Below, in pieces: positions 2,624-35,161 of a stretch of DNA of 64,000 nucleotides; within the stretch, counting starts at the first letter, position 1, and each line of letters starts with the position of its first letter. The translations under genes were made by a program, and so were the position numbers. Source of the DNA: Candidatus Latescibacterota bacterium (GTDB lineage Bacteria; Latescibacterota; UBA2968); the NCBI GenBank assembly GCA_965208125.1, contig OZ242320.1, positions 2,432,001 to 2,496,000 of the forward strand, written 5' to 3'. The notes below the pieces were generated by a model. The model was not told the origin of the DNA, did not search any database, and saw nothing but the letters and a program-made list of their open reading frames with translations.

Positions 2624-2790
2624 GTTTTCTCCTTCCTTTCTCCTCCCGTCATTTATGCATTTATGCATCGCTTTGGTGCAGTATCGGCTCTGACAAAGCT
2701 GAAAAGATAAAAGATTCAGAGAATTTGAAATTTTTTTAGAAAAATAAAAAACGGGTAGAGAATTACGAGACTCTCTACCTGTTATGCTAA

Positions 2791-2827
2791 TTTTTCATGG
2801 TGGGTAATACTGTACTTGGACCGGTGA
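2791..2827 (-). mobile_element. Degenerate copy of the tRNA-Val(GAC) 3' end (att-like scar)
   Basis: ATGGTGGGtaATACTGtACTTGgACCgGTGA (2797-2827) matches 15088-15118 at 26 of 31 nt in the same orientation. Confidence 0.65.
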
Positions 2828-2909
2828 TTTTTTACCTGATCGTATGAAAAGTCAGGTTTCTGGAAAGTACCGCTCCTGAATCTAAACCACTCGCATTTTC
2901 TGAGATTCC

Positions 2910-3833
2910 TTATTCTTTTTTCCACGGACCACCGTCTTGCCATACTTGATTGTATTCCTCTCTTCTTGTGGCTGCAAGAAGGGGTGGAGCAAGAAAAGTG
3001 CTCAACGTTTCAATAAGTTCAGGAAGTTCCTGTGGGGCATCTGTCAGGTCGCTCCGTTCAAGAAAACTACGCCACTGCTCTGCTTTCCCCGGATATTCGG
3101 CAAATTGCTTATCCAGAGCGACCGGCTGTTCGTTGGGTAAGGGTATCCTTCGTCGCTCGAAAGTCCCCCGGATGGCCTGAGTTAGCACCAGCCCTTCAAA
3201 AGAAAATGTTCTGGCTATTAGCCAGAGGTCATAGAAATCCTTCATACGGCTATTTTGCATACCCAAGACAACCAGGGCATTCAGTTTTTCGGCGACGACC
3301 GTCTCAGGAGGATAGGCTCTGAGTTCGGGTGCAGGAAAATCCAGCAACCCCGGGTACAGGAGAGTAGTGGTCCTGGGTATTACCACGTCTCCAAATCCCA
3401 CGTCAATTTGCACCTGGAACCGTGCAGTTCCAAGCAAACAAGAGAGACGGATGCGATGACTCTCATAGACTGCATTATCTCGAATGGCTTGGACTCGAAC
3501 ACTTTCAGGGTCATAAAAAAGCCCGTCTGCCACCACATTTTCTCGACAGATTGCTTTAAAGACTTTTGCGATATGGTCATGGGAGGCTTCGCCATGGCCC
3601 AACAAATCCAGGTCTCGAGTTATACGATGAGCACTACCTGTCCAGGCGAAGAAAAGCAGGGCACCTTTGAGGATAAAACTGGAGCGAAATGGAGACTGGG
3701 ACAGACGGTAGAGGAATCTTTCAATGGCATATCGCAAGAAAATCTGATTGGGTTCTTCCCTTTTTTCTCTGCTCAGGTTTAAAAGTCGCTGATGGACGGA
3801 TACAGGTAGATTTTTGGGACGCGTTCTTTTCAT
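2910..3833 (-). CDS. abiEii: AbiEii-family nucleotidyltransferase toxin (type IV TA)
   Basis: YAIERFLYRLS, FILKGALL, R-I-T-R-D-L-D-L, IDVGFGD, ETVVAEKL, NSRMKDFYD; ATGA overlap with the upstream antitoxin stop at 3830-3833. Confidence 0.9.
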   Translation of the reverse strand: MKRTRPKNLPVSVHQRLLNLSREKREEPNQIFLRYAIERFLYRLSQSPFRSSFILKGALLFFAWTGSAHRITRDLDLLGHGEASHDHIAKVFKAICRENVVADGLFYDPESVRVQAIRDNAVYESHRIRLSCLLGTARFQVQIDVGFGDVVIPRTTTLLYPGLLDFPAPELRAYPPETVVAEKLNALVVLGMQNSRMKDFYDLWLIARTFSFEGLVLTQAIRGTFERRRIPLPNEQPVALDKQFAEYPGKAEQWRSFLERSDLTDAPQELPELIETLSTFLAPPLLAATRREEYNQVWQDGGPWKKE

Positions 3834-4435
3834 GCCACGATAGCTTCCATATAGGGCCGCATCACATTGGTCATGCGACAGACCTTTGCGAAGTGCCAGA
3901 GGTCGTCCATTGTGATGCGGCGGTCGCGGATGCATTCTTTCAACGCTTCAAGAGCGATGTCCAGGCCGATTTTGTTGCGGTATTTGAAGCAGTCTGCAAC
4001 TGTTTTGGCGGGGTTAAAAATCTGAACGGGAACGCCTTCAATCTGATATGTCTCGATCCCTTCAGTCAGTGCAACACCGGAGAACCGCATCACCCTCAGG
4101 GGAGGAAATTGCATCTTTGGCTTGGCTGCTCTGCGGTCAATGGCCATCCAGACCTGGTGTGGTAGCTGTGTGCCGATTTCGTGAAAGCTCAAAGCTGACA
4201 GCAGACAGATCACCCCGTGGGGAATGCGCTTTGCTACTTGCGCCAGCCCATAGTGTACCGAAATCTCGGCATTGGCTGCAATGTACAGGCCTCTTCCTTC
4301 CCGTCGCACCAGTCCTTTCTGATATAGCCGACGCAGATATTCGGGATGAAGGCCCCGGGACGTCAGATCGCAAACTCTCAAGAGACCTTGCTGTGCCAGT
4401 TCCAGAACTTGATTTTCTGGTGAATTTTTAGACAT
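3830..4435 (-). CDS. abiEi: AbiEi-family antitoxin / transcriptional regulator (type IV TA)
   Basis: N-terminal wHTH (GLVRREGRGLY), GVICLLSALSFHEI, KTVADCFKYRNKIGLD. Confidence 0.9.
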   Translation of the reverse strand: MSKNSPENQVLELAQQGLLRVCDLTSRGLHPEYLRRLYQKGLVRREGRGLYIAANAEISVHYGLAQVAKRIPHGVICLLSALSFHEIGTQLPHQVWMAIDRRAAKPKMQFPPLRVMRFSGVALTEGIETYQIEGVPVQIFNPAKTVADCFKYRNKIGLDIALEALKECIRDRRITMDDLWHFAKVCRMTNVMRPYMEAIVA

Positions 4436-33409: not shown

Positions 33410-33442
33410 AAGCACTTGAGCTTTTTCAAGTGCTTTTTTTTT
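33410..33442 (+). terminator. Hairpin with U-tract just upstream of the sigma54 promoter
   Basis: AAGCACTTGA-6 nt-TCAAGTGCTT followed by a T run. Confidence 0.5.
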
Positions 33443-33456
33443 GATAGAACGATTTG

Positions 33457-33472
33457 TGGCACGAATTTTGCA
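33457..33472 (+). promoter_or_regulatory. Sigma54 (-24/-12) promoter
   Basis: TGGCACGAATTTTGCA matches the consensus TGGCACG-N4-TTGCA with exact GG-N10-GC spacing, 47 nt before the precursor ATG. Confidence 0.9.
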
Positions 33473-33519
33473 ATATGAAGGGCAGAGATAGCATTTAAAT
33501 TCTCAATAAGGAGGATACC

Positions 33520-33702
33520 ATGGCAACGCCACGCAAGTTGAATTTGATCAATGGAACGATAGATACAGAGGGTGATATTCAAACACTTCGGTCCGCAGAT
33601 AGTCTCAAAATTGGGGGATGTCCAGCTGGCTGGCCATCTGTTCCTCCCCTGCCTTTTCCCAATGACGATGACGATAGGGACGATCTTGAGCGCCCGGAGT
33701 GA
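33520..33702 (+). CDS. RiPP precursor peptide (60 aa)
   Basis: Strong RBS AAGGAGGA (33508-33515); first ORF after the sigma54 promoter; directly upstream of the rSAM/SPASM gene; leader KLNLING...DSLKIGG-C, Pro-rich core, acidic tail. Confidence 0.8.
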   Translation: MATPRKLNLINGTIDTEGDIQTLRSADSLKIGGCPAGWPSVPPLPFPNDDDDRDDLERPE

Positions 33703-33730: not shown

Positions 33731-35161
33731 ATGCTGTGCATTCAAAAATGCGACATGCATCTTTTTCAAACTGAAGAACACAAACAGCCTGTTGCCTATC
33801 AGGTTGAGACGGGTCTGTTTTTTGAATTGGATCCCCATTTCCAGGCAATTTTAGCGTGTTGTGAGGGCTTGTCGGCTTCACAGGTTGTCCAGAGGTTGAC
33901 CGATCAATACGAGGCAGAGGAAATTGCCGAGGCCATTGAGGAATTGGTACAGGTGGGTTTGATTTCAGATGGTGCATTACCCTTGGTGTCCCAGGTGCCG
34001 ACGACAGAGGGGATGGCAGCCTGTGGGGTATCGCAGACAGATCGTTTGCAGGTGTCCTTGCACGTTTCGCATACGTGCAATATCCAATGTGCGTATTGCT
34101 TTGCTCACGGTGGAGATTATGGCGGTAAGGCTATGCTGATGCAATCCGATGTTGCCGAGCAAGCCATACGCTGGATCGTCACCGAGGCTCAGGTGTTCGG
34201 ACGGTGCCAGATTGATTTCTTTGGCGGGGAGCCGCTCTTGAATTTTCCATTGATTCAGGAGCTTGTCCCATTTGCCAAATCCCTGGGCGCGCGATTGGGT
34301 GTGCAGGTTGGTTTTGGTATTGTGACCAATGGCACGTTGTTGACTGACGAGATGAAGCAGTTTTTGGTTGATGAAAAGTTTCAGATTAAGGTCAGCCTGG
34401 ATGGTGGGCGCAAAACACAGGACCGCATTCGCAAGTTTCACAATGGTTCTGGCACTTATGATGTTGTGGCAAAGAATGTACAGAAATTGACTGATGAGGT
34501 GCCTGAGCGCGTGTATTTGCAGGCTATTATGACAGCGTATGATATGGACGAGGATCAGATTGCCGATGCGTTGCGTTCTCTGGGTACTGATAACGCGCTC
34601 ATCGGTCCGGCTGTTGTTTCACCTGATGCGCCTTATGCTATTGGGGAAGAACACATACCCGTTTTGAAGCAACAAATTTACAAGCGCAGCCGGCGTGCGC
34701 TCAAAGCCATTTTAAGTGGTGAAGAAAGTGAAGAGTTTGATCCGCGGATTCAAAAACTTTTGACGCGCGCAAAATCCTGTCACGGGTGCTTGGGTGGCAA
34801 GCAGTATTTGGCGATTGCAGCGGATGGGTCGATTTATTTTTGCTCGAGTTTGGCCGATGCGCCCGAGTTTAAGATGGGTGATGTGTTTTCGGGTATTGAT
34901 CGCGAAAAGCAGCAGCATTTTGACGCGCAGTTCAATGTGAATAATCGTCCTGAGTGCAAGACGTGCTGGGCGCGCAATTTGTGTGGTGGCGGGTGTCTTT
35001 GGGAGGCGAGGACGACGACGGGTGACCCAATGTATCCAAACCCTGTTGCTTGTGAACAGACGCGCTATCGCTATGAACTGGCGATGGAGATGTGTATGGA
35101 GATAGCAGAGGAGGATGCGTCTTTGTTGCAGCGACGATATGATCTGGAAGTGGCTTCATAA
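33731..35161 (+). CDS. Radical SAM/SPASM peptide maturase with N-terminal RRE (PqqD-like) domain
   Basis: CNIQCAYC (CxxxCxxC), FFGGEPLLN, VTNGTLL, VSLDG; SPASM cysteines CLGG...IYFC...CKTCWARNLCGGGC...C; N-terminal ~75-aa strand/helix domain ending EAIEELVQVGLI. Confidence 0.93.
   Translation: MLCIQKCDMHLFQTEEHKQPVAYQVETGLFFELDPHFQAILACCEGLSASQVVQRLTDQYEAEEIAEAIEELVQVGLISDGALPLVSQVPTTEGMAACGVSQTDRLQVSLHVSHTCNIQCAYCFAHGGDYGGKAMLMQSDVAEQAIRWIVTEAQVFGRCQIDFFGGEPLLNFPLIQELVPFAKSLGARLGVQVGFGIVTNGTLLTDEMKQFLVDEKFQIKVSLDGGRKTQDRIRKFHNGSGTYDVVAKNVQKLTDEVPERVYLQAIMTAYDMDEDQIADALRSLGTDNALIGPAVVSPDAPYAIGEEHIPVLKQQIYKRSRRALKAILSGEESEEFDPRIQKLLTRAKSCHGCLGGKQYLAIAADGSIYFCSSLADAPEFKMGDVFSGIDREKQQHFDAQFNVNNRPECKTCWARNLCGGGCLWEARTTTGDPMYPNPVACEQTRYRYELAMEMCMEIAEEDASLLQRRYDLEVAS

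Follow-up and report, generated by a model that had tools for sequence, protein, structure and literature searches.

A single-cysteine peptide family encoded beside a CteB-related radical SAM enzyme and a predicted sigma-54 promoter in Latescibacterota

A stretch of 64,000 nucleotides from the genome of Candidatus Latescibacterota bacterium (assembly GCA_965208125.1, contig OZ242320.1, positions 2,432,001 to 2,496,000 of the forward strand; the window, below) carries a short open reading frame (ORF) for a peptide of 60 residues, directly before a gene for a radical S-adenosylmethionine (SAM) enzyme. This ORF is a conserved coding gene, and it belongs, with the peptides related to it, to a precursor family that is new and narrowly distributed, is served by a maturase of the ranthipeptide type and stands out by its regulator and its enzyme signature. 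Judged from sequence comparisons, the peptide is not a SCIFF. The ORF and the enzyme gene very probably make up a precursor-maturase pair. We also regard it as probable, with less assurance, that the ORF encodes the precursor of a lineage-specific peptide synthesized ribosomally and modified after translation (RiPP), which would be served by an enzyme with a RiPP recognition element (RRE), a radical SAM domain and a SPASM domain under the control of a sigma-54 activator. The predicted chemistry, to which we lean slightly, is a single thioether from Cys34, and any acceptor residue that can be named is unlikely at best.

The translation of the ORF is identical to the sequence on which the original prediction, an earlier reading of the same letters, was built, and the features stressed there are all present: one Cys (C34), a Trp (W38) that gives a C-x3-W spacing, six Pro within residues 35-47, and an acidic C-terminal tail, NDDDDRDDLERPE. 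A word-indexed search of 5.8 billion proteins gave 62 candidates, 47-73 aa long, of which 61 are homologues at E ≤ 0.01. The family alignment has 62 rows, including the truncated P0039 and P0015 with its divergent C-terminus, from which some of the gaps arise; peptides of four loci outside the automatic precursor list (L003, L016, L020 and L035) were taken from other locus listings. Six columns are invariant (I20, C34, V41, P42, P45 and F46), while L7, L9, N11 and G12 are each kept in 61 rows and E17 and G18 in 60. The leader pattern KLxLING..D.EG.I is nearly invariant, and the Asp run D49-D52 is present in 56-59 rows. The variable stretch of the window peptide comprises residues 21-40, and W38 (34/62), GG (23/62) and DSLK (8/62) are poorly kept. 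Position 53 is Trp in 52 members and Arg in eight, including the window peptide; 52 peptides have one Cys and ten have two. Across 31 loci, the variation at codon positions 1, 2 and 3 is 62, 51 and 108 for leader codons 1-20, and 14, 9 and 58 for the VPxxPFP codons. The radical SAM gene consistently stands 20-30 nt downstream of the precursor ORF, with a gap of 28 nt in the window. Because of the 61 homologues, the variation at third positions and this constant place, the ORF is beyond chance.

No Pfam or NCBIfam model matches the window peptide, and the family profile found chance matches only among PDB chains (HicA3, E 0.82; a P450, E 1.6). Against 1.84 billion representatives the profile retrieved 20 proteins at E ≤ 0.001, of which 18 are short peptides of the family or of its sister clade, some frame-shifted, and the remaining two are large repeat proteins. 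The profile matches five repeats of P0193, a 642-aa SRCR-repeat protein (Pfam SRCR, E 1.4e-164), with a summed E of 1.2e-9. The starts of SRCR domains (LRLVNG....EGRIEIY) recall the leader KLxLING..D.EGDI at about residues 6-24 of the peptide, and the peptides themselves have no Pfam SRCR match; the likeness is probably a shared beta-hairpin pattern, though a curious one, as two of the four RNA-labelled libraries with relatives of the locus carry the label sponge metagenome. It is also to be noted that five frame-shifted or truncated metagenomic records (P0189, P0191, P0196, P0198 and P0200), which were excluded from the counts, shift frame in or shortly before the core, for example into ...PFPMMTIGTILIS. 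The shifted reading equals the +1 frame over the same DNA in the loci, and these records are sequencing errors or decaying copies.

How widely is this gene pair distributed? A scan with one genome per species gave 58 loci. In 33 of them the enzyme is 87-93% identical to that of the window, and their records are titled Latescibacterota or Latescibacteria except for one Poribacteria and one 'uncultured bacterium' (L037). Four loci with enzymes of 49-52% identity form a sister clade and two with 42-48% a third clade; 17 others come from Bacillota-type records, with enzymes of 27-33% identity beside true SCIFF genes, and the last two (L052 and L058) are partial matches. The peptide profile finds carriers in 20 of 168 Latescibacterota genomes (G000 included), all in two genera: 15 of 20 genomes plus G000 in genus g1 and 4 of 15 in genus g10, with one to three copies per carrier, always as a short open frame. 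The genome of the window has two copies. Sister-clade precursors (9 sequences) show the leader L-x-x-(I/V)-N-(G/A)..D..G.I and a single aligned and invariant Cys, which opens a core C-x-W-P-x-F-x-(I/V/L)-L-P-P-P, followed by a neutral or basic tail without the Asp run. Third-clade precursors (16 sequences) read MHLKPINRQGKKRRK...P-x-L-S-C, and the Cys, kept in all 16, is the sole invariant residue between the leader and a conserved KD near the C-terminus. The seventh residue after this Cys (V41 in the window) is hydrophobic in all three clades, namely V in 62/62 of the window clade, I, V or L in 9/9 of the sister clade and F, Y or W in 15/16 of the third, and it is the only position consistently constrained in all of them.

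Pfam recognizes in the enzyme a PqqD domain at residues 21-74 (24.2 bits, cut-off 23.4), Radical_SAM and SPASM. The best NCBIfam match is the SCIFF maturase model TIGR03974 (260.3 bits, cut-off 425), and QhpD (255.1 bits, cut-off 453), the Nif11-type radical SAM peptide maturase (253.6 bits, cut-off 519) and PapB (230 bits, cut-off 340) follow it closely. Among solved structures the nearest is CteB (PDB 5WGG), with E 6.7e-58 over residues 24-452; the second PDB match is anSME, with E 1.9e-16 over residues 112-248, the radical SAM core only. Identity to proteins named SCIFF maturase by their sources is 30-34%. Judging by these matches, the enzyme is homologous to CteB, QhpD and PapB, and it sits in this group of synthases yet in no named family. 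In 64 enzyme sequences, C116, C120 and C123 of the CX3CX2C motif and the SPASM residues C353, C371, C409, C412, C418, C422 and C441 are invariant. An extra Cys, Cys350, stands three residues ahead of the first SPASM Cys in C350-H-G-C353 (window positions 34778-34789). All 26 aligned enzymes of at least 48% identity, from the window and sister clades, share it, and the 38 rows further away, among them the SCIFF maturases, all lack it: the residue is E, D, H, N, Q, K or T in the 17 rows of the third clade, L, V, R, A or P in the 21 rows of at most 33% identity, and Leu in CteB. In anSME the first auxiliary cluster (Aux I) has Cys255, which lies ahead of the first motif Cys, Cys261, for its fourth ligand, and in CteB the open site of this cluster is filled by a Cys of CteA (PMC6231123). 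By analogy, Cys350 may serve as a ligand that completes the first auxiliary cluster as in anSME.

A model of the leader on the RRE, which the original prediction had called for, was made from an enzyme alignment and a peptide alignment. It scored 0.76, and the best of three controls scored 0.00; among solved complexes 58 in 80 come up to this mark, and among mismatched pairs 2 in 110. The runs have at least 40% of contacts in common, and for the partner the predicted local distance difference test (pLDDT) gives 47 or more. Enzyme residues 28-34, 37, 68-75, 341-346, 452-459 and 470-476 are contacted by peptide residues 5-14, 18 and 20-27, and in the model leader residues 5-27, including the LING segment, lie on the RRE. 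In the solved complex of CteB with CteA, the leader of CteA extends the sheet of the RRE (PMC6231123). Since a like complex has already been solved, the favourable score may reflect that likeness.

Upstream of the precursor, the perfect sigma-54 promoter pattern is the sole match within the 64-kb window, where 0.06 are expected. This strict pattern matched just 15 of 38 loci, and a looser core, GGCA[CT]-N5-TTGC, was then used: 32 of 37 loci have it upstream of the precursor, and the 918 kb searched contain 40 matches in total on both strands. In two loci, L030 and L031, the stretch up to 200 nt from the start codon contains no TGG-N9-TGC, and L038, of the third clade, has no consensus sigma-54 site. 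The genome also encodes rpoN (429.6 bits, cut-off 277), and the gene before the promoter encodes a regulator with a Sigma54_activat match of E 2e-73. Thus all the parts expected of a sigma-54 operon, namely promoter, rpoN and AAA+ activator, are found together, and use of the promoter is predicted. A homologue of the regulator is upstream in 35 of the 36 loci L001-L036, the exception being L016 with just 317 nt of upstream sequence. The related regulators are longer than the 1093 aa of the window regulator, having an open frame of 1604-1691 codons in 25 of 27 loci. Residues 4-671 and 667-1093 of the window regulator align to residues 13-680 and 1190-1616 of that in L001; about 510 aa have gone in frame, from a region that bears TPR repeats in L030, and either a natural deletion or a collapse in the assembly could account for the gap.

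The stretch between regulator gene and promoter holds two kinds of symmetrical elements. Of 30 loci, 16 have an exact palindrome with arms of 8-10 nt, placed at -130 to -135 relative to the promoter. The arms of this -132 palindrome co-vary between paralogues, for example AAGTGTATC/GATACACTT versus AGGTGCATCC/GGATGCACCT, and it may be a paralogue-specific activator site. The other element is a hairpin at about -48 from the promoter, present in 21 of 30 loci, that keeps the arms AAGCACTTGA and TCAAGTGCTT unchanged between loci and has variable loops; it resembles a terminator of the regulator gene or a second protein site. Three palindromes of the GTGATAA-N6-TTATCAC kind, one of them imperfect, are seen upstream of the precursor in L038.

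Contigs of relatives that cover precursor and maturase are present in four RNA-labelled libraries from two studies, two of the libraries being labelled sponge metagenome. Two of the contigs, 1618 and 1141 nt long and both of one study, extend from the start region of the precursor and reach into the maturase gene; the variable core is replaced in them. The contigs of X16 and X17, also from one study, begin 44-47 nt before 33532, near the start expected from the promoter, though a contig cannot show a start. These sequences belong to relatives that are 85-99% alike, DNA may occur in such libraries, and contigs prove neither ends nor a single transcript. In the four runs no contig covers 33300-33500 or extends beyond 35176, which tells nothing, given that these flanks are little conserved and that the contigs are those of relatives. 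Other runs, with small shares (X1-X14 and X19-X24), were left aside as evidence of habitat.

Is the leader then SCIFF-like, as the original prediction held? The CteA sequence that was quoted in support of it is exactly the 21-residue chain B of PDB 5WGG, and by eye DSLKIGGC agrees with DSLKKGGC of CteA at 7 of 8 positions. As to the (I/L)NG segment thought to recur in both, LING is nearly invariant in the present family and LINGT and ILNGS share NG, but NG is not SCIFF-wide. Fifteen SCIFF genes were collected beside the Bacillota-type enzymes and 14 were aligned, leaving out L044, which has no start codon; Asn at the position of CteA N8 was seen, reading the alignment by eye, in one of 14. Alignment of the family to these 14 true SCIFF precursors by hhalign gave a probability of 0.3% and E 0.19 over nine columns, which centre on (S/T)-hydrophobic-(K/E)-x-G-G-C. 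TIGR03973 (50-bit cut-off) matches no member of the family among the 62 at E ≤ 10 and, at E ≤ 1, neither the genome's second copy nor the two peptides tried from the sister and third clades, one from each, while two true SCIFFs used as positive controls scored 87.3 and 83.9 bits. On a hidden Markov model of SCIFF leaders, the family reaches at most 5.3 bits, with a median of -0.8, and shuffled sequences at most 4.9, with a median of -1.6; the window peptide has 1.9 bits, which 1.3% of the 833 reported shuffles reach. No SCIFF among the 1.84 billion representatives is retrieved by the family profile, which at E ≤ 10 also misses CteA among the PDB chains, and the six-Cys core of SCIFFs (CxECQxSCQSACKTSCT..NQxC) is not present in the window peptide with its one Cys. 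The match to CteA at 7 of 8 positions is genuine for this one sequence but falls in a segment that is variable in both families, and leader homology cannot be claimed. A true SCIFF leader re-used on a new core would agree with the homology of the enzymes, with the alike docking mode predicted, with the fact that the sole stretch aligned by hhalign is this very motif, and with the third-clade start H-L-K-P-I-N, which recalls K-H-I-K of SCIFFs; yet the profile searches speak against it, the segment that matches belongs to the family's most variable parts, about 10 more residues lie between the two motifs, and we consider it unlikely. What survives of the idea that ranthipeptide leader recognition was reused is a CteB-like enzyme and a kept LING, without significant homology to the SCIFF leader. 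The supposed conservation of GGC and Trp comes down to the Cys, which alone is invariant. A cleavage after GG finds no C39 peptidase in the loci, and the leader/core boundary of CteA precedes GGC (PMC6231123); the acidic tail, proposed as a follower to be removed, is missing from both the sister and the third clade. One may go to the other extreme and suppose a chance ORF, or a small regulatory one, that merely precedes the radical SAM gene and is no substrate at all. A peptide without any family-model match would suit such a view. However, its amino acids are kept while third positions vary, it has 61 homologues, the arrangement recurs in three diverged clades and the complex model beats its controls, which leaves this alternative next to no probability.

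A single thioether from C34, made by radical SAM chemistry, is suggested by the group to which the enzyme belongs, by its RRE, by the leader and by the one Cys that never varies. The proposed course is as follows. The activator would turn on the precursor-maturase operon, and the leader from about residue 5 to 27 (KLNLING...IQTLRSAD) would dock on the RRE of the enzyme as an added strand or hairpin, as CteA does on CteB. The enzyme would then abstract a hydrogen from a residue downstream and join that carbon to the sulfur of C34, and the result would be one thioether macrocycle in the Pro-rich core. As no linked protease or exporter is found, the product may remain uncleaved and intracellular, as may also be the case for SCIFFs. 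What could be the acceptor? Trp, which the original prediction had named, is excluded as a general partner, with W38 in 34 of 62 members and no Trp after the Cys in five of 62 and in the second copy of the window's genome. The residue at Cys+7 is a candidate by its constraint; we know of no precedent for a thioether from Cys to Val. In the window clade only, one of Asp49-52 might serve, at a distance of at least 15 residues from Cys34. A conserved Thr after PPP was tried as an acceptor in the sister clade and was ruled out by further members that have DP, VK or MS there.

A number of observations weigh against this reading of the locus. No acceptor residue is kept through all three clades, the Asp run is not shared, and core residues 28-60 are not confidently placed by the complex model. 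All named maturase families scored the enzyme under their curated cut-offs. If Cys350 completes Aux I, the ligation of a substrate Cys proposed for CteB may not apply here. The sactisynthases GggB and QmpB resemble ranthisynthases (PMC10288494), which makes a link to an alpha-carbon possible. The window copy of the cassette may be misregulated, its regulator wanting the TPR region, and the RNA-labelled contigs have the limits given above.

The predicted role of Cys350 also keeps alive a different chemistry, in which the enzyme modifies Cys34 itself and makes no crosslink, for example by an oxidation to formylglycine like that of anSME or by another change of the thiol carbon. The Cys is the sole post-leader residue invariant in three clades, Cys350 is placed like Cys255 of anSME in just those enzymes that are closest to the window's (PMC6231123), and anSME is the second match in the PDB. 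Over the full length, however, the enzyme is far more alike to CteB (E 6.7e-58) than to anSME (E 1.9e-16), and with the models for anaerobic sulfatase maturases it reaches 113 and 77 bits, as opposed to 230-260 with those for maturases of thioethers and peptides. The sulfatase motif is C-x-P/A-x-R; it is missing from the peptide, and the conserved VPxxPFP would be left without a role, so that we judge the modification of Cys34 alone improbable. A crosslink free of sulfur, carbon-carbon or carbon-oxygen, from an aromatic residue (F46, W38 or W53) to another side chain has also to be weighed, as F46 is present in 62 of 62 members, the sister clade has C-x-W-P-x-F in 9 of 9, the third clade has aromatics at +5 and +7, and SPASM enzymes of related clades perform such chemistry (PMC10288494). 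But it would leave the invariant single Cys unexplained, W38 and W53 are inconstant (the latter replaced in the window peptide itself), and the top-scoring families form thioethers whereas the formers of cyclophanes score much lower (YhhB 88 bits, FxsB 73.5). This crosslink is very improbable in our judgement.

The features discussed are collected in Table 1. Downstream genes vary by paralogue type, and therefore the constant module is limited to activator, promoter, precursor and maturase. In one paralogue type, to which the window belongs, a full-length homologue of the methyltransferase-like protein lies downstream of the radical SAM gene (13 of 36 loci). This protein matches Methyltransf_24 with E 0.002, below the gathering score, and the O-methyltransferase 2GPY with E 5e-4, and it has Atlas neighbours with PF13578; its gene is accessory at most. 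The other paralogue type (11 loci, for example L002 7497-11841) has after the maturase, in place of the methyltransferase, a sensor-less sigma-54 activator of 345 aa (AAA+ and helix-turn-helix only) and then a UvrD-type helicase of 1093 aa. The gene for the DUF4403 protein, that for a 383-aa membrane protein and the two ORFs after the latter have no homologue in any fetched locus and are for this reason dropped from the system. Most loci likewise have no linked protease or exporter. Some neighbours are peculiar to single loci: in a sister-clade cassette (L030 7937-13219) a 6-bladed beta-propeller protein (DUF5128/DUF4934), an AhpC/TSA-like protein and a 560-aa ABC exporter without a peptidase-domain match are encoded downstream, and in L038, of the third clade, a second radical SAM/SPASM gene (2746-4041), whose product is 25% identical to the window enzyme, directly follows the first.

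Table 1. Positions in the window of the precursor gene, its parts and the surrounding features.
Feature	Position	Strand	Remarks
Regulator, 1093 aa: Ser/Thr kinase, AAA_16 (STAND), GAF, sigma-54 AAA+, Fis-type helix-turn-helix	29938..33219	+	Pfam
Two overlapping perfect palindromes, AAGTGTATC-N6-GATACACTT and TTCAGATACA-N2-TGTATCTGAA	33326..33358	.	about 100-130 nt upstream of promoter
Hairpin AAGCACTTGA-N6-TCAAGTGCTT, then T run	33410..33435	+	11 pairs; terminator-like
Sigma-54 (-24/-12) promoter, predicted, TGGCACGAATTTTGCA, TGGCAC-N5-TTGCA	33457..33472	+	pattern match
Ribosome binding site AAGGAGGA	33508..33515	+	aaggagga/ggagg kept before ATG in listed loci
Precursor peptide gene	33520..33702	+	60 aa, ATG start
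Leader, about residues 1-27	33520..33600	+	
C34 codon	33619..33621	+	
VPPLPFP codons	33640..33660	+	
Acidic tail codons	33661..33699	+	
Peptide maturase, 476 aa: RRE (PqqD-like, 21-74), radical SAM, SPASM	33731..35161	+	Pfam, NCBIfam and PDB matches
Class I SAM-dependent methyltransferase-like protein, 302 aa	35318..36226	+	weak Pfam/PDB matches

What might such cassettes be for? A speculative view, to which we give very little probability, is that they are paralogous and insulated peptide-signal circuits of sponge-associated Latescibacterota, in which every kinase-STAND-TPR-GAF sigma-54 activator would control a peptide of its own, and might sense it too, with a thioether in this peptide from Cys to Cys+7, and in which residues 21-40 and the palindromes would set the specificity. 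If it were true, the product would have an unseen thioether to the unactivated aliphatic carbon of a Val, closing an 8-residue ring before the rigid VPPLPFP and an acidic tail with Trp or Phe. A bolder form would let the Pro-rich and acidic-aromatic motifs, together with the SRCR-like leader hairpin, mimic short linear motifs of the sponge host. Apart from such views, radical SAM thioether peptides have been mined mostly through Cys-rich cores, and a single-Cys family is now defined in three clades. The family comes with a set of motifs (a leader L-x-L-I-N-G..D..G.I, one Cys, a hydrophobic Cys+7 and the enzyme signature C350-x2-C353) and with a regulatory design of sigma-54 promoter and kinase-fused activator. 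Its chemistry is testable with two genes in E. coli, and it offers a natural contrast to CteB on the binding of a substrate Cys by Aux I.

Compared with known systems, the locus is most like the SCIFF pair CteA/CteB, of the Tte1186 type: both are two-gene cassettes with a short precursor directly before an RRE/radical-SAM/SPASM enzyme, the model puts the leader strand on the RRE as 5WGG has it, the first Cys often comes after small residues, and mostly no protease or exporter is linked. They differ in that the present peptide has one Cys instead of six, a leader about 10 residues longer, a Pro-rich core and an acidic tail, that the enzyme is about 30% identical, scores 260 bits against the 425-bit cut-off and has the extra Cys350, and that the phylum is Latescibacterota instead of Bacillota, with control by sigma-54 and a kinase-activator. 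By enzyme score (255 and 230 bits), QhpC/QhpD and PapA/PapB (freyrasin), both systems of Cys to Asp/Glu thioethers, are near, and PapB joins Cys to Asp or Glu (PMC9413430), an acceptor that the Asp run could supply. Unlike these systems, however, the peptide has no C-x3-D repeats, the nearest Asp is 15 residues from the Cys, and the enzyme stays under the cut-offs of 453 and 340. KgrA (enteropeptin), a sactipeptide precursor compared by description only, is likewise a radical SAM thioether peptide with one Cys; it was excluded from the training of RODEO, the data on single-Cys precursors being insufficient for a scoring module, and its enzyme KgrC is divergent in sequence from the ranthisynthases, which are highly similar to each other (PMC10288494). 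Supplements apart, the literature found on single-cysteine ranthipeptide radical SAM thioethers concerns archaeal proteins only, although the dataset of PMC10288494 may list the present enzymes, and none was found that links a ranthipeptide with sigma-54. A second study of sponges names ranthipeptides among its RiPP classes (PMC11832590). In a survey of sponge Latescibacterota, antiSMASH clusters of the 'ranthipeptide' and 'RRE' classes are reported and the function of ranthipeptides is called unknown (PMC12993501); figures and supplements apart, its text gives class labels without precursor, motif, promoter or regulator, and its ranthipeptide clusters are probably the same kind of locus as that of the window.

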